Program-made: the position numbers and the translations under genes
Shown here: positions 15,412 to 63,810 of the stretch, piece after piece
Position numbering within the stretch: the stretch's first letter is position 1
Layout: each line of letters opens with the position of its first letter
The notes under the pieces: model-generated
Seen by the model: only the letters and a program-made list of their open reading frames with translations
Database searches by the model: none
What the model was told of the DNA's origin: nothing
Assembly: GCA_032718475.1 (NCBI GenBank)
Contig: JAUCBJ010001293.1
Span: 3,432-67,431, forward strand
From: Nemertoderma westbladi
Taxonomy: Eukaryota; Animalia; Xenacoelomorpha
DNA: 64,000 nucleotides
Direction of reading: 5' to 3'

Positions 15412-15720
15412 AGGTTCACTGTGTCAAGTACAATGCACACATCTCCAACCAGATGCTATATAACATGAGTTGATGTTGGAGGTGTCTCATTGGTTCCCCC
15501 AAGCTTGACACTAGAACAAAGCCGTCTCCGCTTTGCAGGACATTGCTTTCGCCGTGAGGACCAGCCAGTGCACCTCATGGAGTGAATATGCATGGTGGAC
15601 AGCCCATGACTTTCTTGAGACGCATCTTTCTTACTGTCTTAAAGGACACTGGCCTTGAAGATGCGGATGATCTAACAAATGTCATGGGTGATAAGGCTGT
15701 AAGGGAGTTGTGGAGGCGCA
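15412..15720 (+). pseudogene. 3' part of the same RTE-like LINE family
   Basis: Starts VHCVKYNAHISNQML, continuing the 11833-12320 and 57550-58020 fragments, then SRLRFAGHCFRREDQPV. Confidence 0.75.
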
Positions 15721-19727: not shown

Positions 19728-20700
19728 CTAATACTATGGTATAGGCATAGGGTAACCGGTGCCGGTACTTCTTTCTTTATTGCATTCTTTGTACTTGCGT
19801 CTTGGCAGTCTGCCAGTATAATAATACAACTGAATATATATTAATGATATTACAGTAGGTATTAAACCAATATCCCAATCCATCCCAGTCACTATCTACA
19901 AGACATCCCAATCATCAAATCGCCCAGTATTTCGCCAGTTTAGTGTAATGTGCCTCGAACCAGGTTATTTTTATTGGAAGCCCAGGAATGTCAACACTAG
20001 CACTATGAGACAATACTGCACAGCTGCAATACGAGTGCATTAAAATTCAGAAATTTAGCAATAAAACAAGGGAGTAATTCCCTTTTTCTCACATGCATCC
20101 CTCGTTAAACCGATTTAGAAATTGTGATTTTTAATTACAAATTTCACTGTAACATATTTAGGGAAAAAAAACGTTGCCGCCGTGACCTATTTTATAAATA
20201 TGCATGATCGGTTTACGTGTTGCATTGTTAAATAAAGTTTTCTTAATTGTTTGTCACCTTAATTTATAATACAAACAGAACAGTACAGAGAGAGTTTAAA
20301 TTATTTTATTACCGGTATTAAATATGTCTGTCTAAGTGTTATAGTCCTATGAAACGTTGATGTTATAGCCATAGCCTACTGTCAGACTGTTTTGAGGAGA
20401 TTATAATCCTACCATTATCCTGCTTGTTTGTTGATGACATACCTATCTAATTTATATTATCTTTTGGTTCACGGAAAGTTTTTTTTATTGTAGTACCTAT
20501 AGTCGGATCTTCTTTCATGTTTGTTAGCGATCAAAGGTCACCAATGGGTTTATGGTTGAATGCAACAACTGTATATATATATATCTGTTGAGTTGATAAT
20601 GGATTCAATTTCATCTCCAGCTCTAGTATAAAGTTATTTCCGCACATTATATCGATCTAACTCCTATCACTGCGTACCGGTACTAACGTCGGCCCTCGAG

Positions 20701-30254: not shown

Positions 30255-31218
30255 ACAGTGGTTTCTACAACTGTTTCCTTAAGGAATGCCTGGTGATTTT
30301 CCACAGTAAACCCTTCCACTCTGTTTCCTAAAGGCATGCCTTTTCACCACCATGGGTGATCTTCCACAGTTAACCTTTCCACTCTGTTTCCTAAAGGAAT
30401 GCCCTCTTACCACCATGGGTGATCTTCCACAGTAAACTCTTCCACTCTGTTTCCCAAAGGAATGCCTGTCCACCACTATGGGTGATCTTCCACAGTAAAC
30501 CCTCCACTCTGTTTCCTAAAGGCCTGCCTATTCACCACCATGGGTGATCTTCCACAGTAAACCCTTCCACTCTGTTTCATAAAGGAATGCCTGTTCACCA
30601 ATCCACCATATGGGTGATCTTTCACAGTAAACCCTTCCACTGTTTCCTAAAGGAATGTCTGTTCACCACCATTGGTTATCTTCCACAGTAAACACTTCCA
30701 CTCTGTTTTCTAAATGCCTGCATGTTCACCGCCATGGGTGATCTTCCACAGTAACCCCTTCCACTCTGTTTCCTAAAGGAATGCCTGTCCACAACCATGG
30801 GTGATCTTCCACAGTAAACACTTCCACTCTGTTTCCTAAAGGAATGCCTGCTCACCACCATGGGTGATCTTCCACAGTAAACCCTCCACTCTGTTTCCTA
30901 AAAGCCTGCCTGTTCACCACCATGGGTGATCTTCCACAATAAACCCTTCCACTCTGTTTCCTAAAGGAATGCCTGTTCACCAATCCACCATGGGTGATCT
31001 TCCACAGTAAACCCTTCCACTGTTTCCTAAAGGAATGTCTGTTCACCACCATTGGTTATCTTCCACAGTAAACCCTTGCACTCTGTTTTCTGAAAGCCTG
31101 TCTGTTCACCACCATGGGTGATTTTCCACAGTAAACCCTTCCACTCTGTTTCCTAAAGGCGTGCCTATTCATCGCCATGGGTGATCTTCCACAATAAACC
31201 ATTCCACTCTGTTTCCCA
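30255..31218. repeat. ~63-bp minisatellite (caccaccatgggtgatcttccacagtaaacccttccactctgtttcctaaaggaatgcctgtt), ~15 copies
   Basis: Period measured at 30351 -> 30414. Confidence 0.95.
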
Positions 31219-34841: not shown

Positions 34842-36588
34842 ATGGGTGTAAACGTTACACCGACAGCAGAGAACCGACAGCAGACAACCGATAGAAGACA
34901 ACCGAAAGCAGATAACCGACGGTTTTCACTTTTCGGTCTATATATATATACCGGTATATGAAGAATTTGTATTTGTTTTAAGTATATGGTGTATTTATTA
35001 AATAGAATATAATAGCCCAGCGCTGATCGAAACCATGCAACTTTTGAACACCCGCCTCAGCTATTTTTCAACTGCTGTTGGTTATCTGCTGTCGGTTGTC
35101 TGCTTTCTGTTGTCTGCTGTTGGTTATCTGCTGTTGGCTGTCGGTTGTCTGCTGTCGGTTGTTGCTGTCGGTCAGTCTGCTGTCGGTTGTCTGCTGTCGG
35201 TTGTCTACTGCTCGGTTGTCTGCTGTCGGTTGTTCTGCTTGTCGGTTGTCTGCTGTCGGTTGTCTGCTGTCGGTTGTCTGCTGTCTGTTGTCTGCTGTCG
35301 GTTTCTGCTGTCTGGCTGTCGGTTGTCTGCTGTCGATTGGTTATGCTGTCGGTTGTCAGCTGTCGGGTTGTCTGCTGTCACTGTCGGTTGTCTGCTGTCG
35401 GTTGTCTGCTGTCGGTTGTCTGCTGTCGGTTGTCTGCTGTCGGTTGTCTATGCTGTCAGCTGTCGGTTGTCTGCTGTCGGTTGTCTGCTGTCGGTTGTCT
35501 GCTGTCGGTTGTCTGCTGTCGGTTGTCCTGTCGGTGTCGGTTGTCTGCTGTCGGTTGTTACTGTCGAGTTGTCTGCTGCCGGTTGTCTGCTGTCGGTTGT
35601 CTGCTGTCGGTTGTCTGCTGTCGGTTGTCTGCTGTTGGCTGTCGGTTGTCTGCTGTCGTTTATCTGCTGTCGGTTGTCAGCTGTCGGTTGTCTGCTGTCG
35701 GTTGTCTGCTGTCGGTTGTCTGCTGTCGGTTATCTGCTGTCGGTTGTCTGCTGTCGGTTGTCTGCTGTCGGTTGTCTGCTGTCAGTTGTCAGCTGTATGC
35801 TGCGTTGTCATGCTGTCGGTTGTCTGCTGTCGGTTGTCTGCTGTCGGTTGTCTGCTGTCGGTTGTCTCTGTCGGTTGTCTGCTGTCCGTTGTCTACTGTC
35901 GTTGTCTGCTGTCGGTTGTCTGCTGTCGGTTGTCTGCTGCCGGTTGTCTGCTGTCGGTTGTCAGCTGTCGGTTGTCTGCTGTCGTTTATCTGCTGTCAGT
36001 TGTCAGCTGTGGGTTGTCTGCTGTCAGTTTTCAGCTGTCGGTTGTCTGCTTCGTTGCAGCTGTCGGTTATCATGCTGTCGGTTGTCTGCTGTCGGTTGTC
36101 TGCTGTCGGTTGTCTGCTGTCAGTTGTCAGGTACGGTTGTCCACTGTCGGTTGTCTGCTGCCGGTTGTCTGCTGTCGGTTGTCTGCTGTCGGTTGTTTGC
36201 TGTCGGTTGTCAGCTGTCGGTTGTCTGCTGTCGGTTGTCTGCTGTCGGTTATATGTTGACGGTTGTCTGCTACCGGTTGTCTGCTGTCGGTTGTCTGCTG
36301 TCGGTTTTCTGCTGTCGGTTGTCTGCTGTCGGTTGTCTAATGTCGGTTTTCAGCTGTCGGTTGTCTGCTGTCGGTTATCTGCTGTCTGTTATATGCTGTC
36401 GGTTGTCTGCAGTCGGTTGTCTGCTGTCGGTTGTCTGCTGTCGGTTGTCTGCTGTCGGTTGTCTGCTGTCGGTTGTATGCTGTCGGTTGTCTACTGTCGG
36501 TTATCAGCTGTCGGTTGTCTGCTGTTGGTTGGCTGCTGTCGGTTGTATGCTGTAGGTTGTCTGCTGCCGGAGTGACGTTTACACCCAT
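34842..36588. mobile_element. TIR element whose right arm has expanded a 14-bp subterminal repeat (gctgtcggttgtct)n to ~1.5 kb
   Basis: atgggtgtaaacgttacaccgacagcaga (34842) vs tctgctgccggagtgacgtttacacccat (36588). Four inverted units in the left arm, ~100 in the right (35073-36568). Confidence 0.85.
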
Positions 36589-36659
36589 CACTTTGTTTCC
36601 AATATTAGTGGACATGTTATTTATGGTTCGATTGGAAATTTTCTGTAGCCTACTTCCAT

Positions 36660-39600
36660 CCACCCATCTGACCCCACACTACCCATTTTACGGTAGGTAC
36701 ACTATACCCATTTGACCCCACACTATACCTATTTGACCCCACACTATGCCCATTTGACCCTACACTATACCCATTTGACCCCACACTATACCAATTTGAC
36801 CCTACACTATACCCATTTGACCCTACACTATACCCATTTGACCCTACACTATACCCATTTGATACTACACTATACCCATTTGAACCTACACTATGCCCAT
36901 TTGACCCTACACTATACCCATTTGACCCCACATTATACCCATTTGACCCTTAACTATACCCATTTGATACTACACTATACCCATTTGATACTACACTATA
37001 CCCATTTGACCCTACACTATACCCATTGGACCCCACACTTCAATACCCATTTGACCCTACACTATACCCATTTGACCCCATACTATACCCATTTGACCCT
37101 ACACTATACCCATTTGATACTACACTATACCCAATTGACCCTACACTATACCCATTTGACCCTACACTATACACATTTGATACTACACTATACCCATTTG
37201 ACCCTACACTATACCCATTTGACCCTACACTATCCCCATTTGACCCTACACTATACCCATTTGATACTACACTATACCCATTTGACCCTACACTATACCC
37301 ATTGGACCCCACACTTCAATACCCATTTGACCCTACACTATACCCATTTGATACTACACTATACCCATTTGACCCTACACTATACCCATTGGACCCCACA
37401 CTTCAATACCCATTTGACCCTACAATATACCCATTTGACCCTACACTATACCCATTTGACCCTACACTATACCCATTTGACCCTACACTATACCCATTCG
37501 ACCCTACACTATACCCATTTGATACTACACTATACCCATTTGACCCTACACTATACCCATTCGACCCCACACTATACCCATTTGACCCCACAATATACCC
37601 ATTTGACCCTACACTATACCCATTCGACCCTACACTATACCCATTTGACCCCACACTATACCCATTTGACCCTACACTATACCCATTTGACCCCACACTA
37701 TACCCATTTGACCCCACACTATACCCATTTGACCCTACACTATACCCATTCGACCCCACACTATACCCATTTGACCCCACACTATACCCATTTGATACTA
37801 CACTATACCCATTTGACCCTACACTATACCCATTTGACCCTACACTATACCCATTTGACCCTACACTATACCCATTCGACCCCACACTATACCCATTTGA
37901 CCCCACAATATACCCATTTGACCCTACACTATACCCATTTGACCCTACACTATACCCATTTGACCCTACACTATGCCCATTTGACCCTACACTATACCCA
38001 TTTACCCCACACTATACCCATTTGACCCTACACTATGCCCATTTGACCCTACACCTACACTATACCCATTTGACCTCACACTATACCCATTTGACCCTAC
38101 ACTATACCCATTTACCCCACACTATACCCATTTGACCCTACACTATGCCCATTTGACCCTACACCTACACTATACCCATTTGACCTCACACTATACCCAT
38201 TTGACCCTACACTATACCCATTTGATACTACACTATACCCATTTGATACTACACTATAACCATTTGACCCTACACTATGCCCATTTGACCCTACACTATA
38301 CACATTTGATACTACACTATAACCATTTGACCCTACACTATGCCCATTTGACCCTACACTATACCCATTTACCCCACACTATACCCATTTGACCCTACAC
38401 TATGCCCATTTGACCCTACACCTACACTATACCCATTTGACCTCACACTATACCCATTTGACCCTACACTATACCCATTTACCCCACACTATACCCATTT
38501 GACCCTACACTATGCCCATTTGACCCTACACCTACACTATACCCATTTGACCTCACACTATACCCATTTGACCCTACACTATACCCATTTGATACTACAC
38601 TATACCCATTTGATACTACACTATAACCATTTGACCCTACACTATGCCCATTTGACCCTACACTATACCCATTTACCCCACACTATACCCATTTGACCCT
38701 ACACTATACCCATTTGATACTACACTATACCCATTTGATACTACACTATACCCATTTGACCCTACACTATACCCATTGGACCCCACACTTCAATACCCAT
38801 TTGACCCTACAATATTCCCATTTGACCCCACACTATACCTATTTGATACTACACTATACCCATTCGACCCCACACTATACCCATTTGACCCTACACTATA
38901 CCCATTCGACCCCACACTACACCCATTTGACCCTACACTATACCCATTTGACCCTACACTATACCCATTTGACCCTACACTATACCCATTTGACCCTACA
39001 CTATACCCATTCGACCCCACACTATACCCATTTGACCCTACACTATACCCATTAGACCCTACACTATACCCATTTGACCCTACACTATACCCATTTGACC
39101 CTACACTATACCCATTTGACCCTACACTATACCCATTTGACCCTACACTATACCCATTCGACCCCACACTATACCCATTTGACCCTAGACTATACCCATT
39201 AGACCCTACACTATACCCATTTGACCCTACACTATACCCATTTGACCCTACACTATACCCATTTGACCCTACACTATACCCATTCGACCCCACACTATAC
39301 CCATTTGACCCTACACTATACCCATTCGACCCCACACTACACCCATTTGACCCTACACTATACCCATTTGACCCTACACTATACCCATTTGACCCTACAC
39401 TATACCCATTTGACCCTACACTATACCCATTCGACCCCACACTATACCCATTTGACCCTAGACTATACCCATTAGACCCTACACTATACCCATTTGACCC
39501 TACACTATACCCATTTGACCCTACACTATACCCATTTGACCCTACACTATACCCATTCGACCCTACACTATACCCATTCGACCCCACACTATACCCATTT

Positions 39601-42600
39601 GACCCTACACTATACCCATTTGACCCTACACTATACCCATTCGACCCCACACTATACCAATTTGACCCTACACTATACCCATTTGACCCTACACTATACC
39701 CATTCGACCCCACACTACACCCATTTGACCCTACACTATACCCATTTGACCCTACACTATACCCATTTGACCCTACACTATACCCATTTGACCCTACACT
39801 ATACCCATTTGACCCTACACTATACCCATTCGACCCCACACTACACCCATTCGACCCCACACTACACCCATTTGACCCTACACTATACCCATTTGACCCT
39901 ACACTATACCCATTCGACCCCACACTATACCCATTTGACCCTACACTATACCCATTTGACCCTACACTATACCCATTCGACCCCACACTATACCCATTTG
40001 ACCCTACACTATACCCATTTGACCCTACACTATACCCATTCGACCCCACACTACACCCATTTGACCCTACACTATACCCATTTGACCCTACACTATACCC
40101 ATTTGACCCTACACTATACCCATTTGACCCTACACTATACCCATTTGACCCTACACTATACCCATTCGACCCCACACTACACCCATTCGACCCCACACTA
40201 CACCCATTTGACCCTACACTATACCCATTTGACCCTACACTATACCCATTTGACCCTACACTATACCCATTTGACCCTACACTATACCCATTTGACCCTA
40301 CACTATACCCATTTGACCCTACACTATACCCATTCGACCCTACACTATACCCATTCGACCCTACACTATACCCATTTGACCCTACACTATACCCATTTGA
40401 CCCTACACTATACCCATTCGACCCCACACTATACCCATTTGACCCTACACTATACCCATTCGACCCTACACTATACCCATTTGACCCTACACTATACCCA
40501 TTCGACCCTACACTATACCCATTTGACCCTACACTATACCCATTTGACCCTACACTATACCCATTTGACCCTACACTATACCCATTCGACCCTACACTAT
40601 ACCCATTTGACCCTACACTATACCCATTTGACCCTACACTATACCCATTCGACCCCACACTATACCCATTTGACCCTACACTATACCCATTTGACCCTAC
40701 ACTATACCCATTTGACCCTACACTATATCCATTGGACCCCACACTTCAATACCCATTTGACCCTACACTATACCCATTTGACCCTACACTATACCCATTC
40801 GACCCTACACTATACCCATTTGACCCTACACTATACCCATTTGACCCTACACTATACCCATTCGACCCCACACTATACCCATTTGACCCTACACTATACC
40901 CATTTGACCCTACACTATACCCATTTGACCCTACACTATATCCATTGGACCCCACACTTCAATACCCATTTGACCCTACACTATACCCATTCGACCCCAC
41001 ACTATACCCATTTGACCCTACACTATACCCATTTGACCCTACACTATACCCATTCGACCCCACACTACACCCATTTGACCCTACACTATACCCATTTGAC
41101 CCTACACTATACCCATTTGACCCTACACTATACCCATTTGACCCTACACTATACCCATTTGACCCTACACTATACCCATTCGACCCCACACTACACCCAT
41201 TCGACCCCACACTACACCCATTTGACCCTACACTATACCCATTTGACCCTACACTATACCCATTTGACCCTACACTATACCCATTTGACCCTACACTATA
41301 CCCATTCGACCCTACACTATACCCATTTGACCCTACACTATACCCATTTGACCCTACACTATACCCATTCGACCCCACACTATACCCATTTGACCCTACA
41401 CTATACCCATTTGACCCTACACTATACCCATTTGACCCTACACTATATCCATTGGACCCCACACTTCAATACCCATTTGACCCTACACTATACCCATTTG
41501 ACCCTACACTATACCCATTCGACCCTACACTATACCCATTTGACCCTACACTATACCCATTTGACCCTACACTATACCCATTTGACCCTACACTATACCC
41601 ATTTGACCCTACACTATACCCATTTGACCCCACACTATACCCATTTGACCCTACACTATACCCATTTGACCCTACACTATACCCATTTGACCCTACACTA
41701 TACCCATTCGACCCCACACTATACCCATTTGACCCTACACTATACCCATTTGACCCTACACTATACCCATTTGACCCTACACTATATCCATTGGACCCCA
41801 CACTTCAATACCCATTTGACCCTACACTATACCCATTTGACCCTACACTATACCCATTCGACCCTACACTATACCCATTTGACCCTACACTATACCCATT
41901 TGACCCTACACTATACCCATTCGACCCCACACTATACCAATTTGACCCTACACTATACCCATTTGACCCTACACTATACCCATTCGACCCCACACTATAC
42001 CCATTTGACCCTACACTATACCCATTTGACCCTACACTATACCCATTTGACCCTACACTATACCCATTTGATACTACACTATACACATTCGACCCCACAC
42101 TATACCCATTTGACCCTACACTATACCCATTCGACCCCACACTACACCCATTTGACCCTACACTATACCCATTTGACCCTACACTATACCCATTTGACCC
42201 TACACTATACCCATTTGACCCTACACTATACCCATTCGACCCCACACTATACCCATTTGACCCTACACTATACCCATTAGACCCTACACTATACCCATTT
42301 GACCCTACACTATACCCATTTGACCCTACACTATACCCATTTGACCCTACACTATACCCATTCGACCCCACACTATACCCATTTGACCCTACACTATACC
42401 CATTCGACCCCACACTACACCCATTTGACCCTACACTATACCCATTTGACCCTACACTATACCCATTTGACCCTACACTATACCCATTTGACCCTACACT
42501 ATACCCATTCGACCCCACACTATACCCATTTGACCCTACACTATACCCATTAGACCCTACACTATACCCATTTGACCCTACACTATACCCATTTGACCCT

Positions 42601-44608
42601 ACACTATACCCATTTGACCCTACACTATACCCATTCGACCCTACACTATACCCATTCGACCCCACACTATACCCATTTGACCCTACACTATACCCATTTG
42701 ACCCTACACTATACCCATTCGACCCTACACTATACCCATTTGACCCTACACTATACCCATTTGACCCTACACTATACCCATTCGACCCCACACTACACCC
42801 ATTTGACCCTACACTACACCCATTTGACCCTACACTATACCCATTTGACCCTACACTATACCCATTTGACCCTACACTATACCCATTTGACCCTACACTA
42901 TACCCATTCGACCCCACACTATACCCATTCGACCCTACACTATACCCATTTGACCCTACACTATACCCATTTGACCCTACACTATACCCATTCGACCCTA
43001 CACTATACCCATTTGACCCTACACTATACCCATTTGACCCTACACTATACACTATACCCATTCGACCCTACACTATACCCATTCGACCCCACACTATACC
43101 CATTTGACCCTACACTATACCCATTTGACCCTACACTATACCCATTCGACCCTACACTATACCCATTTGACCCTACACTATACCCATTTGACCCTACACT
43201 ATACCCATTCGACCCTACACTATACCCATTTGACCCTACACTATACCCATTTGACCCTACACTATACCCATTTGACCCTACACTATACCCATTCGACCCT
43301 ACACTATACCCATTTGACCCTACACTATACCCATTTGACCCTACACTATACCCATTCGACCCTACACTATACCCATTTGACCCTACACTATACCCATTTG
43401 ACCCTACACTATACCCATTTGACCCTACACTATACCCATTTGACCCTGCACTATATCCATTGGACCCCACACTTCAATACCCATTTGACCCTACACTATA
43501 CCCATTTGACCCTACACTATACCCATTTGACCCTACACTATATCCATTGGACCCCACACTTCAATACCCATTTGACCCTACACTATACCCATTTGACCCT
43601 ACACTATACCCATTCGACCCTACACTATACCCATTTGACCCTACACTATACCCATTTGACCCTACACTATACCCATTCGACCCCACACTATACCCATTTG
43701 ACCCTACACTATACCCATTTGACCCTACACTATACCCATTCGACCCTACACTATACCCATTTGACCCTACACTATACCCATTCGACCCCACACTATACCA
43801 ATTTGACCCTACACTATACCCATTTGATACTACACTATACCCATTTGATACTACACTATACCCATTTGACCCTACACTATATCCATTGGACCCCACACTT
43901 CAATACCCATTTGACCCTACACTATACCCATTTGACCCTACACTATACCCATTCGACCCTACACTATACCCATTTGACCCTACACTATACCCATTTGACC
44001 CTACACTATACCCATTCGACCCTACACTATACCCATTTGACCCTACACTATACCCATTTGACCCTACACTATACCCATTCGACCCTACACTATACCCATT
44101 TGACCCTACACTATACCCATTTGACCCTACACTATACCCATTTGACCCTACACTATACCCATTTGACCCTACACTATACCCATTTGACCCTACACTATAC
44201 CCATTTGACCCTACACTATACCCATTCGACCCTACACTATACCCATTCGACCCTACACTATACCCATTCGACCCCACACTATACCCATTTGACCCTACAC
44301 TATACCCATTCGACCCTACACTATACCCATTTGACCCTACACTATACCCATTTGACCCTACACTATACCCATTCGACCCCACACTATACCCATTTGACCC
44401 TACACTATACCCATTTGACCCTACACTATACCCATTTGACCCTACACTATATCCATTGGACCCCACACTTCAATACCCATTTGACCCTACACTATACCCA
44501 TTTGACCCTACACTATACCCATTCGACCCCACACTATACCCATTTGACCCTACACTATACCCATTTGACCCTACACTATACCCATTCGACCCCACACTAC
44601 ACCCATTT
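36660..44608. repeat. 21-bp satellite (ccctacactatacccatttga)n, ~7.9 kb, ~375 copies with recurrent variant units
   Basis: Direct periodicity. Variants tcgacccc, gatacta and the 24-bp ggaccccacacttcaata recur. The long ORFs here arise because several frames of the unit have no stop codon. Confidence 0.98.
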
Positions 44609-46129
44609 GGCAATAGGAACAAAATTCGCAAAATATCAATAGGAACAAAATTCGCGCCACCGTTCAAGGATTAGTTACACCAACAGACACAGCGATGTTG
44701 AAATCGTGGGAACTGTATGATAAGCACGCTCGCTAACTTTAGTCTAGTAGTCAAGTAGACAGTACCGACCACCGTTCAAATTGGGTATGACTGCAGTTTT
44801 TTTTGCTGAAAGTGTTAACTTGTATAAACCATTTGAAATTATGTTATATTTCACATAGTCCGCATTGAGCAATTTTTTCTAGAACACTATTTATCTTAAC
44901 GACAGATTTTTTACATAGCAACAATAATGAATTAACACGCAGGGGTATATTTATCTATTTAGACAATGGTCAATCATAAATAAGGAGAAACCAAGCTCGA
45001 GAAAATAAAAATGTAAGGAATAAGGATTATGTTTGCAGTTATGAGTTACAAATTTTGTAACATTGCAGTGTTATGGCAAACACTGTTACTGGTAGTGAAC
45101 TTGTAATACATACAAGGCTCGGTGTGCAATTTGGAGCTCATCACTGTGGCCAAGTAATGCACCGACATATCTGTCTGTCAGGAATATATGCTGTCAGCAC
45201 CCTAACTCTCGCTAGACATGTATCCTCAAGAACTGGTGGAAAATATGTTGGAAATATGTTAATTCGAATGTGGACTTTGTGGCCGACGCATTTATGGACA
45301 GAATGGCGCAGGTTTATCCTTAACGAAGTAGCAGTGGTTACCCAAACTGAGATGTTGTTTCTGTAAGGTGATGTCCGGTATTACCAGTGGACCGTGAAAT
45401 AAAAGGTGGAAGATTGTCGATGAAACAACTTCTGCATTTGCAGTAATTACTTTTAGTTGAATGTTTGATAATATATTTATTTACACGTTATCACAGTCCT
45501 TGTTCGCACACTTGCAATAAAAATTGAAAGCCCAATTTACAAATTGCTCCCACATCCAACCAAAGTTTATAGGCTATAGTAGCGGCTGCCGGCTGCATAT
45601 TATCTACAGCCGCTCTCCAGAATAATACTTGCGAGCCCGCTCTTCTTATATTCATTCTTGACTGCTGCAGTTTCCTTTAATTCTAAATTTTACATCTGAA
45701 ATAAATAATACTTTCATTATATTTTGTGCAAGATAATTCGCAATGCTAGGTTAGCTTTGCAGGAATTAAAAGTTCTAGGAATTCGAATAATATATCAATA
45801 TCTGCATTATACAATAGTAAAAAAAACCAATCAAACAGTCGGACTGAAGGCATCTCTTCGAAGATAGGGATTTAGTCGCAATCAAAATTCATCCCTCTCC
45901 AGGGAAAAATCGACGCAAATAACAGCTGGATACTCCCAAAAATAAAACTGTAACCTGTTCTGTTGACTTTCGTTTATCATTTTGGTTAGAATAACGTGCC
46001 ACTGTAACATGCTTCTGTCTCCCTCTTCAGTAGCTGCTACCCGAAGGTATGACTGGTGCTACTCGTATCCCAAGGTTTGTTCCCAGTAATTCAACAGGTA
46101 CTCATTTTATCGACCCCAGTGAATGAAAG

Positions 46130-48799: not shown

Positions 48800-49655
48800 G
48801 TGATGGTACAACTGGGTTACGAACGAGGTTACAATTTGGTAATGTGTGAGGTTACAATTTGGTTACGAGTAAACTGGAACTGGTTTATGACGAGGTTGAC
48901 CTCGTTAACTGTGTCAGAAGTTGAGTTACAGTTCGGTCATGAGTGGGATACAGCTCGATCACAAGTGAGTAACAGCCTTGTTACGAGTAAGTTACAGCTC
49001 AGTCACAAGTGAGTTACAGCTTGGTCACAATTGAGTTACAGCTCGGTCATTATCACAGTTATGTTACAGCTCGGTCACAAGTCACAGCTCGGTCACAAGC
49101 AAGTCACAGCTCGGTCACAAGCAAGTCACAGATCGGTCACAATTGGGTTTTCAGCTCGGTCACAAGTGACTTACTGCTCAGTCACAAGTGAGTTACAGCT
49201 TGGTCACAATTGAGTTACAGCTTGGTCACAATTGAGTTACGCTTGGTCAGAAGAAAGTCACATCTCGGGCACAAGTGAGTTACAGCTCGGTAACAGGTGG
49301 GTTACAGCTCGGTCACAAGTGAGTTACAGCTCGGTAACAAGTGGGTCACAGCTCGGTTACTAATGAGTTGCAGCTCGGTCACAAGTGAGTTACAGCTCGG
49401 TAACAAGTGGATTACAACTCGGACACAAGTGAGTTTACAGCCCGGTCACAAGTGAGTTACAGCTCGGTAACAAGTCAGTAACAGCTCGGTCACAAGTGAA
49501 TTACAGCTCGGTCATTAATAAGTTACGGCTCGGTCACAAGTAAATTACAGCTCGTTTACACGTGAGTTACAGCTCGGTAACAAGTGGGTCACAGCTCGGT
49601 CACTAATGAGTCACGGCTCGGTTACAGGCGAGTTATGATCATGAGTGGGTTACTG
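48800..49655. repeat. Degenerate 22-bp tandem repeat (gagttacagctcggtcacaagt)n, ~35 copies
   Basis: Direct periodicity; built from two related 11-bp halves. Confidence 0.9.
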
Positions 49656-49959
49656 GCCTAGAGATGATCCTCCTTCATCAGGAATTGACCTGCCTTAGTG
49701 AGATTTTCAAATAAAATTAAGCCTATTGTATCTAATTTGATACATGTTATTAAATGATCTCAAATATTACTATTTACAGGGGTATTGTACGGAGCCCAGG
49801 AAGGGACATGAGAAAAATATTTTTCTAACACGAGTCCACGTGTTACTAACACGAGCCCTCGTGTTACTAACACGAGCCCACGTGTTACTAACACGAGCCC
49901 TCGTGTTAGTAACACGAGCCCTCATGATAGCTCCAACGACCATTTACGTTAATATTACA

Positions 49960-51106
49960 CGAAGTGGGGCCTTCGCGCAGCACGTGACTTAATTATACTT
50001 AGTTATACATTTCGCCCTCTAGCGGCAGACTGGAGGACTCCAGACCGTTTACTGCCCACCAAAGACTCAGGCCGACTTCTACTACATATCTGCTACGTTT
50101 CAGCTTGAACGGATCATAAATAACGAGATGGGAGAAAGATTTCACTTTCAAACATTTCGCCCTCTAGCGGCAGACTGAAGAACTGCACACGGATTAGCCT
50201 TTAATTCAATTCAATTCAATTCCTTCTTTCAAAGTCACAGCTAATGGTCTAGTACATATCTGCCAAATTTCAGCATAAATGGATTAAAAGCAAAGAAATG
50301 GGAGGACATTTAACGTTTAGACATGTGGCCCTCTAGCAGGAGACTATTGCTCTGATGGTGTCTGAAAGTCTCTCAAACGTCTCAACTTTAGCTCATATTG
50401 ATACCTACAAATTTTCAACTTGGCAGCTTTAAATCCGACAAAGTTATTAGCATGTCAAAATCGTAACGACGACAACGATTTCACTTTCAGACCTTTGGCC
50501 CTCTAGCGGCAGACTGGAGAACTGCAGATGGATTCGCCTCCTTTGAAAGTCACTGCTAATGGTCTAATACATATCTGCCAAGTTTCAGCTTAAACGGATT
50601 AAAAGCAAATAAATGGGAGGGCATTTAATGTTTAGACATGTGGCCCTCTAGCGGGAGACCATTGCACTGATGGTGTCTGAAAGTCTCTCAAAAATCTCAA
50701 CTTTTGCTCATATTGATACCTACAAATTTTCAACTTGGCAGCTTTAAATCCGACAAAGTTATTAGCATGTCAAAATCGTAACGACGACAACGATTTCACT
50801 TTCAGACCTTTGGCCCTCTAGCGGCAGACTGGAGAACTGCAGATGGATTCGCCTCCTTTGAAAGTCACAGCTAATGGTCTAATACATATCTGCCAAGTTT
50901 CAGCTTAAACGGATTAAAAGCAAAGAAATGGGAGGGCATTTAATGTTTAGACATGTGGCCCTCTAGCGGGAGACCATTGCACTGATGGTGTCTGAAAGTC
51001 TCTCAAAAATCTCAACTTTTGCTCATATTGATACCTACAAATTTTCAACTTGGCAGCTTTAAATCCGACAAAGTTATTAGCATGTCAAAATCGTAACGAC
51101 GACGAC

Positions 51107-51199
<93 letters not shown>

Positions 51200-51297
51200 A
51201 ACGACGACGACGACGACGACAACTATTTGCATAAATTGACCCACCCCCTAACAGTGTCAATTCGCTAAGGCTCCGCCAACTTCGTGGCTCGCCCCAC
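49960..51297 (+). mobile_element. Helentron/DINE-like element nested in the left TIR: three 315-bp units, (GAC)n of ~40 copies, end motif gctaaggctccgccaacttcgtggctcgccccac
   Basis: Splits the left TIR at aatattaca^aattt (intact in the right TIR) with no clear TSD. Period 315 (50461, 50776, 51091). Related ends at ~12570, ~13010, ~19510 and ~56935. Confidence 0.75.
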
Positions 51298-51501
51298 AAA
51301 TTTGGAGTTGTTTGATTGGTTGTAGTAACATAGGAGAACTAAATTGGAGGGAAATTAAAATTGTATCTCAGTGGTTCTTACGTTTCTGTTCTGTTCCTGT
51401 ATGTTCGTGTATGACAACAGTTCGAAGTTTCCCACTTAATTGAATTCGCAGTAATTCAACTTAGCAGCGCGAACTATTGCATGCCCAGCACATTTTGACA
51501 T

Positions 51502-52707
51502 ATGTGGCCCGATCAGTTAATGCCGCTTCGCAAAATTTATTTAGACCTTAGCATGCCTTATAAAGATATTTCGTCTGTACTTGCCAATGATCATGGGATA
51601 AGCATTGGTGAGCGACAACTAAAACGTTTATTTAGAGATTTCGGATTACAACGTCGAAATTACACACCATTGGAAGAAGTTGTAGAATTTATTAAAAATC
51701 AATTGGCTGGATCGGGAAGCATGCTGGGTTATAGAATGATGTTTGAAAAGTGTCGCCACAACGGCTTAGTTGTGAAAAAGGAGGACGTACAAAGAATTCT
51801 CAAGAAACTTGATACGCGAGGAGTCGAGCTTAGACAATCGCACCGACTTAAACGACGTTCATACTATGCCAGAGGTCCAAATTACCTCTGGGGCATTTGG
51901 ACGGCTATGATAAACTAAAACCGTTCGGTCTATGTATAAGCGGTTGCATAGATAGGTTTTCACGCAAGATTTTGTTCTTAGAAGTTTATAAAACCAATAA
52001 CAACCCAAAAATTATTGGTGGCTATTTTGTTGATTTAGTATCTCGCCTTGGTGGATGCCCTTTAATGGTCAGGGCAGACTACGGAACTGAAAACACCTAC
52101 GTGAGAAGCTTTCAGATGTTGTTTCGCCGCAATTGCACTGATGGCTTGGTAACCCGGGCGTATACAGACGGGCGCAGTACGGCAAATCAAAGAATCGAGA
52201 GTTGGTGGGGGGTTCTTCGGAAGGAGAACGCGCAGTTCTGGATAGAATTATTTAAAGAATTGCAGGCAGAATGTATCCTCCCCGGAGACTTTGTTTCAAA
52301 GGCTGTTGTTCAGTTCTGTTTTACTTCACTAATTCAAAACGAACTAGACACATTAGCATCAGTGTGGAACCACCATCTTATTCGTCCTTCAAGAAATCCC
52401 AACGTTCCAAGCGGTCGACCTTAATATTATGTATTGTTCGCCTAGCCTCTACCGTTGTGCTACCGAACAGCTCGTAACCGTAGCGCCTTCTGAAATTAAT
52501 ACCTGCTGCTCCAACGAATTATTCCGCTCATCAGCTATTCCTTGTGATGCCGATGTATATGAACTGTGCATTCAGTTAATGCGTGAGAATAACCTCCGAC
52601 TTCCTCTATCCGTAGACGACGCCGTGGAACTTTATCTCATCCTTCATAATGCAATTCGCGAACTTCTTGGAAACAACGTAAACGATATGTATACTGAGTC
52701 AGATTAA
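51502..52707 (+). pseudogene. DDE transposase with integrase-core (rve/IS3-like) domain and N-terminal HTH-like region, broken by two +1 frameshifts
   Basis: RLKRRSYYARGPNYLW / HLDGYDKLKPFGLCISGCIDRFSRKI / VRADYGTEN / STANQRIESWW / WNHHLIRPS..GRP / MYCSP. Removing one G at ~51893 and one T at ~52421 joins the three ORFs into ~400 aa. Confidence 0.9.
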
Positions 52708-53000
52708 CTAATTATTATTATAGTTGAGTATGATGTAGGTGTGTTTTTATGATATACTGTACTATAATTATTGACTGTATAGCGAGAATTAATTAATTTG
52801 ATAATCGATATAATTTATTTATATCAATAATCAACCATCAATCAACCCCCCCCCCCCGCCCCTCGTTCCTTTATTTATTATCGGAGATATCTATTTTAAA
52901 TTAAAATAATAAAATAATTACTGACCGTTTGCATTTGAATAATAAAAGTATGTTTAAAACACATGTTTACAATTTATTTATTAATTAATAATTTACATAC

Positions 53001-55271
53001 CAACAAGGTCCTGGAGATAATCCCTCCAATAGGTTAGCATTCGACGCTCGCGTCGCCGCCGAATTGAACCTTGCTCTGACCACTGCACTTCAAATAGCTG
53101 TTCAACAATAGTGGCGTCAAGTTCACACTTTGAATAAACGAAAACTTCCTTAAAGATATCTCTATGATAATTTTAATAATTCTAATATTATTTAGAACTC
53201 CGAGAGTCTTTAATCCTTCCTTGAATCTAGAAAGGTGAATTACTATTGTAATACATTAACTTAACAATGTACCAAACTTGTAATTGCCTTTCCGTCGTCA
53301 TAGTAACGATCATTATTGTTGATAATTATAGTTAATAAAAAAATTAATTAATTAAATAAATATTGTAAATTCAACAACTTTAATAAAACATGGCTCAATA
53401 GAAAGGAGTGAAGGAAATTAAGAAAGTTATAAAGATTGATTAAGTTACATAAATTTTAGATAATTGTAATTATTCAGCAATTAATCCATATAATTAGTGG
53501 CAGTTTTTAAATATAGGAAAAATTACTGTTCTAGTGGCCGGCGAATGCGATCGAAGCAAATAAACTTGTTAAGACTGGAGACAAGTGTATCTATATGGGT
53601 GAATTTTGTTGTCAAATTGTAGCAACCAGACATTCCAATAATCTTCTGGGCCTTATTGACTGCTTCGCGAAAGTTATCATCAGCTTCCGACACAGCTATC
53701 TAAAGAAACAGTACAAATAATTAATAAATAGCGGCCCGGATTTATAATGAATTAATGCCCTAGAATGGCCTTATAACTATTATGGTGGACCGGTCCGTTA
53801 TAACAGTATATTTATACAGTAGTTATAGGCCGCCATAATAGTCTATAGTTATAGGCCTATATGTTATTGATACAAATAGCATTGATTTGAGATCGCCAAT
53901 CGTAGTCATTGATATGTTACAAATTAAACATAATTTGAGAATCCAGCTCTTGGGAAACCAGTAATTCGTAGGTAAACGGTGAAAAGAATAAGGGAACTGG
54001 GCCACGATGGGCTATCATATATGCAATCATGCGGCCAAAAATGAAATATTTGTTGTTAATTACACCTGCAAAATAATAAAAAAATAGACACTAACAAATT
54101 GGTCTAAATATTTAATTACTTTAATAGAATCCTATATAAATAAAAATAATTAAGTAATAAAATAAAATAATTAAGTAATAAATAATTACTAACTGTTATA
54201 ATCAAGAGCAAAGCATTTAGCAGTATCTGGTCCTTCAAAAGTAGGTGCTCTGGAAATAGCCTGCATGGCAAGTCGCATGAACTCCCTACGAGGACCCCCT
54301 GCATCCTTTCCGTCCTCGTCACTAAACTTTACATCCAAAGATAAACATGGATTGAAGGTACTTCGAGTAAACCCCCGCATTACTCCATCCATAACATCTT
54401 CTCTATCGACGTTGATGATGTTTCTTCCCTCCTCGTTAAGCTGTTCTAACAAACTAATTAAAATCTTTGACAATGAAATTGATCGTTGACGTCAAAGTTA
54501 CTTTCAGCTGCCGTATCCCTAGAGATGAGAGAGGAAAGCGGATCTTCGGAGATGACAGTAGGCCGATCTTCCGAGGCCTAGAATCTAACAGAGGGCTGAA
54601 CTTCCAAGATGACAGAAGGATGATCTTCAGAGATGGATGAAGGATGATCTTCGGAGATGGATGACGGATGATCTTCGGAGATGGATGAAGGATGATCTTC
54701 GGAGATGGATGACGGATGATCTTCGGAGATGGATGAAGGATGATCTTCAGAGATGGATGAAGGATGATCTGCAGAGATGGATGAAGGATGATCTTCCGTG
54801 ATAGCGGAATGTGGATCTGGATAGGTTGAAAAGATTTCAGCAGGTGGATCGGCCGAGGAAACATCTAATTTTAATTTCGAACCAATATATAATCGAAGTA
54901 AGCCAACCAAGCTCCAACCTCGAGCAAGATTTATCATAAGTATTACCATTCATATTAACATCCTGATCTCGGATTCGTTTTGAACCTTTAGCTATTCCCA
55001 GCCTATTTCGTATCCGTTCCAATACAGTATTTCCATTAGAGTCGGCGTTCGATTCAGAGGTTGGTTTAGGATTATTAGAACTACTGGCACCGTTCATCTG
55101 CCTACAAAATGCCTTTACAGAAACTCGGTCGCCGTATGCTGGTAAGTAAAGTTTCAGTTCAACGTCATTTAGTAGTAATATAACTTCTGGGCTTATCTTG
55201 TCGGTTACCATCCGAGGAATGAACTCGCCCAAGCTTCGTTCTCTCATGAATGTTTCAAGTTCGTTATTCAT
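53001..55271 (-). pseudogene. Transposon cargo gene: N-terminal SAM-like domain, acidic EDHPSSIS repeats, G2E3-like HECT domain (N-lobe) in spliced exons; disrupted
   Basis: Exons 55271-54194 (frameshifted; ...VKFSDEDGKDAGGPRREFMRLAM..TFEG), 54065-53878 (YFIFGRMIAYMIAHRGPVPLFFSPFTYELL, one in-frame stop), 53699-53527 (..DRIRRPLEQ), 53226-53001 (FKEGLKTLGVL..FEVQWSEQGSIRR..WRDYLQD). Intron phases 1/0/2 are consistent; one donor reads AT instead of GT. Confidence 0.85.
54600..54800 (-). repeat. 24-bp coding tandem repeat (EDHPSSIS) x~7-8 inside the cargo gene
   Basis: gatgatcttcggagatggatgaag repeats on the + strand. Confidence 0.9.
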
Positions 55272-56196
55272 TATTCACACTTAAGTCAGTATACCTGCAG
55301 CCGTTAAGAGAAATGCGAAATATATAATAGGCTTATACTGAACAGAAACGTAAGAACCACTTATATACAACTTTAATTCCCCTCCAATTTAGTTCTCCTA
55401 TGTTACTACAACCAATCAAACAACTCAAAATTTGTAATATTAACGTAAATGGTCGTTGGAGCTATCATGAGGGCTCGTGTTAGCTAACACGAGGGCTCGT
55501 GTTAGTAGCACGAGGGCTCGTGTTAGTAACACGAGGGCTCGTGTTAGCTAACACGAGGGCTCGTGTTCGAAAAATATTTTTCTCATGTCCCTTCCCGGGC
55601 TCCGTAGTCTTGCATTTTTTGAAGAAAAAATTTGTTTTTTGGCTATTCTTGATACGAAAAAAAATTTTCGAGTGGAACATTAAATTTATATAGAACAAAT
55701 TAATTTTTTAGAAATGTTGAAAAATGGCATAATGTTAAAACGAAACCTTCTTATATACAACTGTAATTTAAAGTTACATAACTTGATGGTAGGTGGCGCT
55801 ACAGTATATCAAACGAAACCCCAATAAGTATAGATAGAATACGATACAGCAGGCCACTATTATTCAAAGTGCTTTGAGTTGGAATTATATGTCCACTTAA
55901 ATAACATGTATCGAATTCGATACATACGGTGGTAGAGGGTTAAGGGAGCCGGCGGGATAAAACAATAAACTTTAGGATTATTAATAAATTTTACTAAATT
56001 TTCAATTATCAATTAAATTTCCGCTAAAACAGCACCCCACTTGGAAATTTGTGTACCTACCAACTACCACAGGTACTGACTGCTTATTTGTACTATACTC
56101 TTCACTGGAAGGCTTATGAGTAGGCCCCTATCGTACATTAGTTTAATTTTTGATAAGTATTCAACGAAACTGTTCATAGTTTTGCGTAACTGTTAT

Positions 56197-56929: not shown

Positions 56930-57500
56930 GTCATAATGGCGAGCCACAAAGTTAGAGGTGCCTTAGCAAACTGACTGTATTAGAGTGAGTCAATTTTTGC
57001 AAATAGTTGTCGTCGTCGTTGTAACGAGTTCAACATGCCGAAAACCTCGTACGATTTAAACTCACTTAAAGGGGGGGGGGGGGGGGGGGCTGCTTCGGCT
57101 ACGGATGGCGAAGGAAGTTTCTGTTCTCACAAACAAACCCAAACAAACCCATTTATTCCTTTATTTTTGGTAACCGCAATCGGTCTTCAGCCCTGCCGCT
57201 GCAGTCTGCCGATAGAGGGCGAAATGTATATGAGAATGAAAACCTTCTCTCGTTTCCTTGATTTTGATCCGTTTTAAGCTTAATCTTGGCATATGTACTA
57301 GATCACTGGCTGAGTCTTTCTGGGGGAGCTAATCCGTCTGCAGTTCTCCAATCTTCCATTAATTGCCGAAATACTTGAAATGAAAAAAATGTATGAGTTC
57401 TTAAACCGTCTGCAGTTGCACAGTCTGCCGCTAGAGGGTAAAAGTAATGTGGAAAAATCTGCTTACATTGCATAAAGCTCCATACCATTTTTAGGCAACC
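56930..57500 (-). mobile_element. Helentron/DINE-like element related to 49960-51297, inverted and diverged
   Basis: ggcgagccacaaagttagaggtgccttagc, gcaaatagttgtcgtcgtcgt, cagtctgccgatagagggcgaaatgt and cagtctgccgctagaggg are reverse complements of motifs in 49960-51297. Confidence 0.7.
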
Positions 57501-60084: not shown

Positions 60085-63000
60085 GTTGTTTGGGTTAGGA
60101 GGTTGGGCGTTGTTTGGGTTAAGAGGTTGGGCGTTGTTTGGGTTAGGAAGTTGGGCGTTGTTTAAGTTAGGGGATTGGGCGTTTTGGGATTAGGAGGTTG
60201 GGAGTTGTTTGGGTTAGGAGGTTGGGCGTTGTTTGGGTTAGGAGGTTGAGCGTTGTTTGGGTTAGGAGGTCGGGTGTTGTTTGGGTTAGGAAGTTGGGCG
60301 TTGTTTGGGTTATGAGGTTGGGCGTTGTTTGGGTTAGGAAGTTGGGCGTTGTTTAAGTTAGGGGATTGGGCGTTTTGGGATTAGGAGGTTGGGAGTTGTT
60401 TGGGTTAGGAGGTTGGGCGTTGTTTGGGTTAGGAGGTTGAGCGTTGTTTGGGTTAGGAGGTTGGGCGTTGTTTGGGTTAGGAAGTTGGGCGTTGTTTAAG
60501 TTAGGGGATTGGGCGTTTTGGGATTAGGAGGTTGGGAGTTGTTTGGGTTAGGAGGTTGGGCGTTGTTTGGGTTAGGAGGTTGGGCGTTGTTTGGGTTTGG
60601 AGGTTGGGCTTTGTTTGGGTTAGGGGATTGGGCGTTTTGGGGTTAGGAGGTTGGGAGTTGTTTGAGTTAGGGGATTGGGCGTTTTGGGGTTAGGAGGTTG
60701 GGCGTTGTTTGGGTTAGGAGGTTGGGCGTTGTTTGGGTTAGGAGGTTGGGCGTTGTTTGAGTTAGGGGATTGGGCATTTTGGGGTTAGGAGGTTAGGAGT
60801 TGTTTGGGTTAGGAGGTGGGCGTTGTTTGGGTTAGGAGGTTGGGCGTTGTTTGGGTTAGGAAGTCCGGAGTTGTTTGGGTTAGGAGGTTGGGCGTTGTTT
60901 GGGTTAGGAGGTTGGGCGTTGTTTGAGTTAGGGGATTGGGCATTTTGGGGTTATGAGGTTGGGAGTTGTTTGGGTTAGGAGGTTGGGCGTTGTTTGGGTT
61001 AGGAGGCTGGGCGTTGTTTGAGTTAGGGGATTGGGCATTTTGGGGTTAGGAGGTTGGGAGTTGTTTGGCTTAGGAGGTTTTGCGTTGTTTGGGTTAGGAG
61101 GTTGGACGTTGTTTGGGTTAGGAGGTTTTGCGTTGTTTGGGTTAGGAGGTTCGGCGTTGTTTGGGTCAGGAGTTTGGACGTTGTTTGGGTTCGACGGTTG
61201 GGCGTTGTTTGGGATTGGAGGTTGGGCGTTGTTTGGGTTAGGAGGTTGGGCGTTGATTGGATTAGGATGTTGGGCGTTGTTTGGGTTAGGAGGTTGAACG
61301 TTGTTAGGGTTAGGAGATTGGGCGTTGTTTGGGTTAGGAGTTTGGGCGTTGTTTGGGTTAGACGGTTGGGCGTTGTTTGGGATCGGAGGTTGGGCGTTGT
61401 TTAGGTTAGGAGGTTGGCGTTGTTTGGATTAGGAGGTTGGGCGTTGTTTGGGTTAGGAGGTTGAACGTTGTTTGGGTTGGGAGGTTGGGCGTTGTTTAGG
61501 TTTGGAGGTTGGGCGTTGTTTGGGTTAGGAGGTTGGGCGTTGTTTGGGTTAGACGGTTGGGCGTTGTTTGGGATCGGAGGTTGGGCGTTGTTTAGGTTAG
61601 GAGGTTGGCGTTGTTTGGATTAGGAGGTTGGGCGTTGTTTGGGTTAGGAGGTTGAACGTTGTTTGGGTTGGGAGGTTTGGCGTTGTTTAGGTTTGGAGGT
61701 TGGGCGTTGTTTGGATTAGGAGGTTGGGCGTTGTTTGGGTTAGGAGGTTGTACGTTGTTTGGCTTAGGAGATTGGGCGTTGTTTGGGTTAGATGGTTGGG
61801 CGTTGTTTGGGATTGGAGGTTGGGCGTTGTTTGGGTTAGGAGGTTGGCGTTGTTTGGATTAGTAGGTTGGGCGTTGTTTGGGTTAGGAGGTTGGGAATTG
61901 TTTGGGTTAGGAGGTTGGGCGTTGTTTGGGTTGGGATGTTGGGCATTGTTTGGGTTAGGAGGTTGGCGTTGCTTGGATTAGGAGGTTGGGCGTTGTTTGG
62001 GTTAGGAGGTTGAACGTTGTTTGGGTTAGATGGTTGGGCGTTGTTTGGGATTGGAGGTTGGGCGTTGTTTGGGTTAGGAGGTTGGCGTTGTTTGGATTAG
62101 GAGGTTGGGCGTTGTTTGGGTTAGGAGGTTGGCAATTGTTTGGGTTAGGAAGTCCGGAGTTGTTTGGGTTAGGAGGTTGGGCGTTGTTTGGGTTAGGAGG
62201 TTGGGCGTTGTTTGAGTTAGGGGATTGGGCATTTTGGGGTTATGAGGTTGGGAGTTGTTTGGGTTAGGAGGTTGGGCGTTGTTTGGGTTAGGAGGCTGGG
62301 CGTTGTTTGAGTTAGGGGATTGGGCATTTTGGGGTTAGGAGGTTGGGAGTTGTTTGGGTTAGGAGGTTGGGCGTTGTTTGGGTTAGGAGGCTGGGCGTTG
62401 TTTGAGTTAGGGGATTGGGCATTTTGGGGTTAGGAGGTTGGGAGTTGTTTGGATTAGGCGGTTGGGCGTTGTTTGGCTTAGGAGGTTTTGCGTTGTTTGG
62501 GTTAGGAGGTTGGACGTTGTTTGGGTTAGGAGGTTTTGCGTTGTTTGGGTTAGGAGGTTCGGCGTTGTTTGGGTCAGGAGTTTGGGCGTTGTTTGGGTTC
62601 GACGGTTGGGCGTTGTTTGGGATTGGTGGTTGGGCGTTGTTTGGGTTAGGAGGTTGGGCGTTGATTGGATTAGGATGTTGGGCGTTGTTTGGGTTAGGAG
62701 GTTGAACGTTGTTAGGGTTAGGAGATTGGGCGTAGTTTGGGTTAGGAGTTTAGGCGTTGTTTGGGTTAGACGGTTGGGCGTTGTTTGGGATCGGAGGTTG
62801 GGCGTTGTTTGGGTTAGGAGGTTGGCGTTGTTTGGATTAGGAGGTTGGGCGTTGTATGGGTTAGGAGGTTGAACGTTGTTTAGGTTGGGAGGTTGGGCGT
62901 TGTTTAGGTTTGGAGGTTGGGCGTTGTTTGGATTATGAGGTTGGGCGTTGTTTGGGTTAGGAGGTTGTACGTTGTTTGGCTTAGGAGATTGGGCGTTGTT

Positions 63001-63810
63001 TGGGTTAGATGGTTGGGCGTTGTTTGGGATTGGAGGTTGGGCGTTGTTATGGTTAGGAGGTTGGCGTTGTTTGGATTAGGTGGTTGGGCGTTGTTTGGGT
63101 TAGGAGGTTGGGAATTGTTTGGGTTAGGAGGTTGGGCGTTGTTTGGGTTAGGAGGTTGGGCGTTGTTTAGGTTTGGAGGTTGGGCGTTGTTTGGGTTAGG
63201 AGGTTGGGCATTGTTTGGGTTAGGAGGTTGGGCGTTGTTTGGGATTGGAGGTTGGGCGTTGTTTGGGTTAGGAGGTTGGCGTTGTTTGGATTAGGAGGTT
63301 GGGCGTTGTTTGGGTTAGGAGGTTGGACGTTGTTTGGGTTAGGAGGTTGGGCATTGTTTGGGTTAGGAGGTTGGGCGTTGTTTGGGATTGGAGGTTGGGC
63401 GTTGTTTGGGTTAGGAGGTTGGCGTTGTTTGGATTAGGAGGTTGGGCGTTGTTTGGGTTAGGAGGTTGGACGTTGTTTGGGTTAGGAGGTTGGGCATTGT
63501 TTGGGTTAGGAGGTTGGGCGTTGTTTGGGTTAGGAGGTTGGGCGTTGTTTAGGTTTGGAGGTTGGGCGTTGTTTGGGTTAGGAGGTTGGGCATTGTTTGG
63601 GTTAGGAGGTTGGGCGTTGTTTGGGATTGGAGGTTGGGCGTTGTTTGGGTTAGGAGGTTGGCGTTGTTTGGATTAGGAGGTTGGGCGTTGTTTGGGTTAG
63701 GAGGTTGGACGTTGTTTGGGTTAGGAGGTTGGGCATTGTTTGGGTTAGGAGGTTGGCGTTGTTTGGATTAGGAGGTTGGGCGTTGTTTGGATTAGGAGGT
63801 TGGGCGTTGT
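60085..63810. repeat. 24-bp G/T-rich satellite (tgggttaggaggttgggcgttgtt)n, ~3.7 kb, ~155 copies
   Basis: Direct periodicity; 23-bp variants; higher-order duplication of 61030-61700 at 62415-63000. Confidence 0.97.

Follow-up and report, generated by a model that had tools for sequence, protein, structure and literature searches.

The stretch of DNA analysed here (the window) covers 64,000 nucleotides (nt) of Nemertoderma westbladi, a member of Xenacoelomorpha (assembly GCA_032718475.1, contig JAUCBJ010001293.1, positions 3,432 to 67,431 of the forward strand), and it holds a decayed IS3EU-type DNA transposon that carries a transposase gene and a gene for a HECT E3 ubiquitin ligase. The element is bounded by TACGG at 49788 and CCGTA at 55606, and its terminal inverted repeats (TIRs) align over 172 nt on the left and 174 nt on the right. 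It is flanked by a target site duplication (TSD), GTATTG on the left and GTCTTG on the right, identical at 5/6 positions, for which the probability of a chance flank match is about 0.005 at the base composition of the window. These TAC/GTA ends and the 5/6 TSD had been reported in a preliminary description of the same DNA, and they are confirmed. We are highly confident that the ligase gene is a regular component of this transposon lineage and that it is dead in the window copy.

The element was compared with same-species contigs from four sequencing runs, which carry one species label and derive from at most three samples; runs X1 and X3 are one sample, possibly the source of the window. At the right end, eight contigs in X1 and 5+4 in X2 part from the window at 55606/55607. 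Their flanks are unlike (agreement 0.52-0.56), which marks the right end as a true mobile boundary. The summed contig depth, which is not a copy number, is much higher over the TIR than over the interior, and internal-deletion derivatives of the element occur in the same species. Joints 52444->53971 in X1-X3 link parts of the transposase and the ligase, and they are not relied on because their short side has 23 letters. An inner inverted pair of 99 nt (51296-51394 and 55337-55435) directly extends the right TIR, therefore the left TIR was split by a 1.34-kb insertion at 49960-51295. The inner TIR segments adjoin the upstream side of both genes and contain ATTGG (reverse CCAAT); the TIR may act as a promoter for each of the two genes.

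The DDE transposase described earlier on the + strand was recovered by Pfam, with matches to rva_4 (PF24764) at an expect value (E) of 3e-26 and to Clr5 at 6e-5. Alignment to relatives shows that two frameshifts are needed, near 51890 and 52420. Among 482 candidates there were 153 relatives of at least 334 residues, and the best were 55-61% identical to the window transposase. The named relatives are mostly from fish, and also from a hemichordate, echinoderms, a beetle, a coral and an oyster. Viral contigs were also scanned for the transposase, and none of 72 pattern matches was confirmed. Published studies describe IS3EU elements with TA..TA ends and 6-bp TSDs (PMC10045372), give TAYGG..CCRTA termini for the fungal families (PMC12730594), report that the elements encode two proteins (PMC8232023) and call the group largely unexplored (PMC11934779). 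The ends and the TSD length given for IS3EU in the preliminary description agree with the first two of these sources. The motifs HLDGYDKLKP, GTEN and NQRIE match by eye the cores of IS3EU-1_DR1p and IS3EU-1_CGi_2p in the supplement of PMC10045372. The proposed membership in IS3EU is thus upheld by termini with TIRs, a 6-bp TSD, a DDE transposase with the core motifs, two proteins and dispersed copies; an autonomous element would have an intact transposase frame, which the window copy lacks.

On the - strand, the second gene splices in phase as had been proposed. It has four exons and three GT..AG introns of 128, 178 and 300 nt with 67-86% AT, and the frame is kept. The in-frame acceptor of exon 3 is the second of two AGs spaced 4 nt apart. 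Two earlier GT donors, giving exon 2 ends at 53930 and 53921, were rejected: they are in phase 2 and give no in-frame join to exon 3. The four exons match a profile of 16 relatives in order, and the spliced conceptual product scores 308 bits against it and covers positions 8-298 of 382. The HECT-region motifs quoted in the preliminary description are present. The HECT assignment itself stands for the N-lobe and the hinge, and not for the C-lobe and the catalytic cysteine, which are absent. Taken singly, the window exons are below the Pfam HECT cut-off, the best being exon 2 (E 0.022, 14.8 bits versus 23.9), whereas 13 of 28 relatives pass. The coordinates of all features are collected in Table 1.

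Table 1. Features of the transposon and its flanks, in window coordinates
Feature	Positions	Strand	Remarks
Left TSD	49782..49787	.	GTATTG, 5/6 identical to right copy
Left TIR, outer part	49788..49959	+	TACGG end; 21-nt repeats at 49825-49923
Nested non-coding insertion within left TIR	49960..51295	.	
Left TIR, inner 99 nt	51296..51394	+	94% complementary to 55337-55435; directly 5' of transposase
IS3EU-type DDE transposase pseudogene	51499..52707	+	frames 51499-51918, 51852-52424, 52357-52707
Deletion junction of window copy	52962..52963	.	expected site of last (C-lobe, catalytic Cys) exon
Ligase exon 4	53001..53226	-	profile 226-298; frameshift near 53170-53185
Ligase exon 3	53527..53695	-	profile 174-228
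Ligase exon 2	53874..54065	-	from profile ~110; in-frame TAA 53919-53917
Ligase exon 1	54194..55271	-	ATG 55271; SAM-like ~55271-55085; HECT start ~54485
Right TIR	55337..55606	-	inner 99 nt and outer 174 nt; CCGTA end
Right TSD	55607..55612	.	GTCTTG

The SAM-like N-terminus of the earlier description found support in structure prediction, although the window ligase ORF (open reading frame) had no Pfam SAM match. Five helices are predicted, with a predicted local distance difference test score (pLDDT) of 86.8. The superposition on SAM gave Z 8.2 with a root-mean-square deviation (rmsd) of 2.4 over 62 residues. The top 11 Foldseek matches were all SAM, but with E values of 0.2-0.7, and the ESM Atlas matches to SAM_NCD1 (0.76) and SAM_1 (0.75) were both under 0.9 and are taken as leads. 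The N-terminus is accordingly a predicted SAM-like fold. Against a profile built from 57 relatives, its match has an E value of 2e-15 and extends as far as an ELGW motif. In one relative, locus L045, this motif begins a predicted ubiquitin-like (UBL) domain (Z 9.0, rmsd 2.3 over 80 residues), so the UBL domain was removed from the window copy by the deletion at 54900, which cuts its first strand. The architecture of the family is SAM, UBL, linker and HECT. Six loci match the N-terminal module, which is common to both of the HECT types found among the relatives. Part of the ligase linker in the window copy is (SISEDHPS)n, the translation of an in-frame 24-nt tandem of 7.6 copies in exon 1 (54615-54796); relatives carry different low-complexity repeats at this place. 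No zinc-finger family was found by Pfam in the window ORFs or in two sets of 28 and 12 relatives, in contrast to the N-terminal PHD/RING-like fingers of G2E3 proper, and no chromatin-reader domain was found in the same relatives.

The window copy carries many breaks. Exon 1 has frameshifts, a TAG at 54580-54578 and the deletion after ELGWL at 54900, and a phase-1 GT donor after exon 4 is left without a following exon. There are about 290 AT-rich bases between this donor and the transposase stop. Profile positions 299-382 (the C-lobe) had no match with a meaningful E value among the six-frame ORFs of the window, and the C-lobe motif was not found within the element, so the catalytic Cys is absent from this copy. 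Same-species contigs depart from the window behind 52962 (197 and 76 letters in X1 and X2) and before 52963 (53, 128 and 14 letters in X1-X3), while one X3 contig spans the 52962|52963 junction as the window does. Because contigs leave the window here, other copies hold a segment that is deleted in this one, and from the exon layout of relatives this segment is probably the fifth (C-lobe) exon. The remaining breaks of the ligase gene likewise seem specific to this copy. At 53166-53184 contigs are missing 11 nt, at 54579 they differ from the window inside the TAG, over 54418-54638 they show a net gain of 19 nt, and at 54900 they continue into other sequence. Any suggestion of a working ligase or transposase in this copy has to be dropped, given its stops and frameshifts, the deleted UBL domain and the missing last exon. 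The window copy is a pseudogene, and it is useful only as a pointer to its family.

The family is large. An exhaustive search with the end of exon 1 gave 601 relatives at E<=0.001; a word-index search with the HECT exon confirmed none of its 67 candidates. PF00632 matched 14 of 28 longer relatives, chosen among 150 listed, and 13 of these were above the Pfam cut-off. The catalytic T/S-C motif is present in all 20 C-lobe matches that reach the catalytic region, and 44 of 57 further relatives also retain it. When a profile built from 15 relatives was aligned with Rsp5 (E 4.8e-25), the catalytic Cys fell on the Rsp5 Cys; 75 solved sequences match this profile. When ten clusters of full-length relatives were looked up, seven were annotated as "G2/M phase-specific E3 ubiquitin-protein ligase(-like)", and four had several near-identical loci within one species. 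These counts support the earlier suggestion about annotated "G2E3-like" genes, in that many such database genes are close, often multi-locus relatives of the window ligase gene.

The pairing of the two genes was followed in the best 80 of at least 528 confirmed metagenome loci and in nine genome-bin loci, all from transposase alignment scans. Among them 88 had a transposase profile match, and HECT was called at E<1e-3; L049 and L050 are one sequence, and other loci may share samples. A HECT gene was present downstream in 22 of the 88 loci, and in 22/22 it was on the opposite strand, that is, convergent. Restricting the count to loci with at least 3 kb of downstream sequence gave 15 of 26. No HECT was found upstream in the 31 loci with at least 1 kb on that side, and a control with reversed ORFs gave no match at E<1. 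All seven candidate HECT ORFs were above the Pfam cut-off. Exon boundaries in the spliced relatives fall at the profile positions found for the window gene; L073 has five exons with breaks at profile ~108, 172, 228 and 300 as in the window, and its fifth exon carries the Cys. Paired ends were convincing around the transposase at three of the 30 loci searched (L070, L087 and L003). L070 is a complete element of 9,394 bp with TIRs and a 6/6 TSD, and it contains the transposase, the SAM/UBL N-terminus and a Pfam HECT match at 1.4e-10. Its ends have TACGGAGCCC and AAGGGACATG in common with those of the window element. The idea that the family encodes its own ligase therefore holds for the lineage and not for the dead window copy, and the data support a gene that belongs to the lineage rather than a one-off capture.

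Sequence comparison of the paired genes points in the same direction. Six non-identical HECT pairs (the identical L049 and L050 were counted once) have proportions of synonymous differences (pS) of 0.70-0.81 against non-synonymous proportions (pN) of 0.24-0.38, and the single transposase pair is similar, with pS/pN of 0.85/0.28. Synonymous sites are saturated in most pairs, and no ratio of substitution rates (dN/dS) is claimed from these values. Between L022 and L080 the identity is 63% for HECT and 59% for the transposase. Over 22 loci, with the threshold relaxed to E<0.1 and L050 dropped, the identities of transposase and C-lobe correlate with a Spearman coefficient of 0.27 (permutation p 0.003). 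This suggests a long association with some exchange.

Our reading is that the window holds a decayed cut-and-paste transposon of the IS3EU/GingerRoot type, whose convergent second gene is the lineage's own SAM-UBL-HECT ligase gene. In intact elements this ligase would likely bind the transposase of the same element through the SAM/UBL N-terminus and likely ubiquitylate it. Several observations weigh against this reading. The gene is not universal: at E<1e-3 no HECT match was obtained in 11 of the 26 loci with at least 3 kb downstream, though L045, which is among these 11, does carry a Pfam HECT. L087 is a complete element of 9,331 bp with a 6/6 TSD that carries a convergent protein kinase and no HECT, and L003 is a 2.5-kb element with paired ends, a transposase only and no second gene. 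Both TIRs, a TSD and HECT occur together at one of the 30 loci tested, mostly because contigs are short. The HECT genes fall into two or more divergent types, which are intermingled on the transposase tree, and co-divergence is weak, so the gene has apparently been exchanged between lineages; shared hosts could also produce the identity correlation. The linker is UBX-like in three relatives, but at E 0.004-0.05, below the cut-off. The window copy, as read from its sequence, is itself unable to encode an active ligase or transposase.

As observations on the kinase-bearing locus, the element of L087 lies at 7883-17213 with the TSD GTTATC, and its convergent gene is a Ser/Thr-Tyr kinase. It had no match to the N-terminal profile at E<1e-3, and no shared adaptor is claimed. 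A second element of 20 kb with TACGG ends (306-20379) apparently surrounds the L087 element. The contig was filed in a bacterial bin, and it looks like animal DNA with introns. Likewise, L081, L082 and L085-L089 come from prokaryotic genome bins but hold spliced IS3EU sequences of animal type, for which host contamination is the simplest explanation.

Compared with known systems, the window element resembles IS3EU/GingerRoot elements (PMC10045372, PMC6839031) in its TA..TA termini, 6-bp TSD class, TIR of 100-200 nt and core motifs, and differs in that the window copy is non-autonomous. The fungal IS3EU elements are like it in termini, TSD and an oppositely oriented second gene for a modifying enzyme, but PMC12730594 gives this gene as an alpha-kinase or TET/JBP, in contrast to the spliced SAM-UBL-HECT ligase of the window family. 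The nearest precedent is the VTD/OTU deubiquitinases of Helitrons, likewise active enzymes of the ubiquitin system encoded by a DNA transposon; according to PMC9741609, they are protease domains within RepHel of a rolling-circle element, whereas the window family has a separate ligase gene. G2E3, GL-Metazoa and GL-Bikonta (class IV HECT) were described as extremely divergent and fast-evolving in PMC3673628, where the string "transpos" does not occur. The link to this class is made by database names, those of seven of the ten looked-up clusters of full-length relatives. The same paper gives human and mouse G2E3 zinc fingers and a non-functional HECT, while the relatives of the window gene have SAM and UBL domains and keep the Cys.

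No paper with both "IS3EU" and "HECT" was found in a search that lay outside Repbase, Dfam and Kojima 2019. Neither HECT nor any ligase as the second protein is named in the main text of PMC10045372, PMC12730594, PMC6839031, bioRxiv 2021.09.26.461848, PMC10853768, PMC8232023 and PMC11934779, and PMC6431247 mentions neither IS3EU nor a ligase. The "_2p" label on an IS3EU transposase shows that there is a further protein in the Repbase entries, and its domain may already be named there.

The fixed place of the gene, the kept Cys and the conservation argue that intact elements use an active ligase. What it acts on was approached by complex prediction. The transposase of L022 with its own ligase SAM+UBL part scored 0.55, and the best control scored 0.02; the runs shared at least 67% of contacts and the partner had a pLDDT of at least 65. 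Of the 78 solved pairs, 51 came up to the mark used, as did 2 of the 108 mismatched pairs. Scores of 0.60 or less at the mark were seen for five of the 78 solved pairs and for all four passing mismatches. Because the passing mismatches all lie at or below 0.60, this single prediction on a relative weakly supports binding of the ligase to the transposase through the SAM/UBL N-terminus, and it lends the same weak support to the earlier idea that the ligase acts on the transposase. If it does, ubiquitylation would limit the level of transposase or strip it from the DNA after integration, and removal could run through p97 and the proteasome, as the weak UBX matches in three relatives may hint. ClpX disassembles the MuA strand-transfer complex, and we offer this as an analogy for the removal of the transposase. 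That the element's own transposase is the main target seems to us plausible, a little short of an even chance.

The ligase might instead ubiquitylate host silencing or chromatin factors, as a counter-defence or chromatin-access factor that is only recruited by its contact with the transposase, and we treat this as a realistic possibility that would still surprise us somewhat. The conserved Cys and protein sequence fit host targets equally well, and the second gene may be another modifier, such as the kinase of L087. Fungal IS3EU elements carry alpha-kinase and TET/JBP genes, of which TET is proposed to counter methylation silencing (PMC12730594), and the deubiquitinases borne by Helitrons are described as active enzymes (PMC9741609). 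Yet the lack of a Pfam chromatin-reader domain in the 28 and 12 relatives tells against it, the N-terminus weakly passes with the cognate transposase in the modelled complex, and no analysis indicated a host target.

In Harbinger elements the product of the second ORF is a structural partner of the transposase. A similar role here, with the SAM/UBL part doing the work and ligase activity secondary, would account for the N-terminal module that both HECT types have in common (6 loci), for its place as the module with the weak pass in complex prediction, and for a catalytic module that varies between lineages; however, the Cys motif retained in 20/20 C-lobe matches and 44/57 further relatives, and a HECT about as conserved as the transposase in L022/L080, make this improbable. 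Least probable is a passive cargo, a host G2E3-like gene captured once or repeatedly with no benefit to the element, and we regard it as largely refuted. Its attraction lies in the decay of the window copy, the internal-deletion derivatives in the same species and the gene fragments reported in GingerRoot elements (PMC6839031). But the transposase of the window copy is equally decayed, and neutral cargo is not expected to show a fixed position and orientation in 22/22 loci, shared introns and a kept Cys, nor saturated synonymous against limited non-synonymous change.

Outside the two genes, the insertion in the left TIR has ACA at both sides, a 315-nt tandem repeated 2.8 times and an (ACG)n tract, and a relative of it lies at about 56938-57444 with 72-94% identity. 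Short inverted motifs occur near the ends of this repeat, which resembles Helentron-associated non-autonomous elements. Its tandem units repeat CCCTCTAGCGGC, which resembles a CTCF motif, and a similar motif is also present in a 150-nt tandem at 4392-4732. Long minisatellites occupy much of the window (periods 63, 14, 21, 22 and 24, at 30292-31216, 35072-44609, 48913-49635 and 60085-63810), and the 22-nt array lies about 150 bp from the insertion site of the element. An uninterrupted + strand ORF of 1,104 codons at 20632-23943 encodes WW, MyTH4 and RhoGAP domains, with a guanine-cytosine (GC) content of 54-60% in a window of 36% GC; from its architecture we take it to be ARHGAP39-like. A location of the element inside this gene was considered and rejected, as the ORF with these three domains ends at 23943 and 118 other + strand ORFs of the 135 listed gave one sub-threshold match.

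In its widest form, our proposal is that a major animal IS3EU lineage is a two-gene system, a transposase and a HECT ligase devoted to binding and ubiquitylating it, which would give eukaryotic IS3-like elements a counterpart of unfoldase-driven transpososome disassembly; that most of the fast-evolving, multi-copy "G2E3-like" (GL-Metazoa) HECTs in animals such as fish and molluscs are genes of these transposons; and that cellular G2E3 may owe its HECT to the domestication of one of them. All of this together is tentative, and we consider it unlikely to hold in every part. The second protein of a widespread animal IS3EU lineage is identified here as a HECT ligase that retains the catalytic Cys. 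This offers a possible explanation for the known oddity that "G2E3-like" HECT genes are so divergent and occur at several near-identical loci within one genome. It means that many "G2E3-like" genes would be transposon genes, inflating the counts of host E3 ligases.

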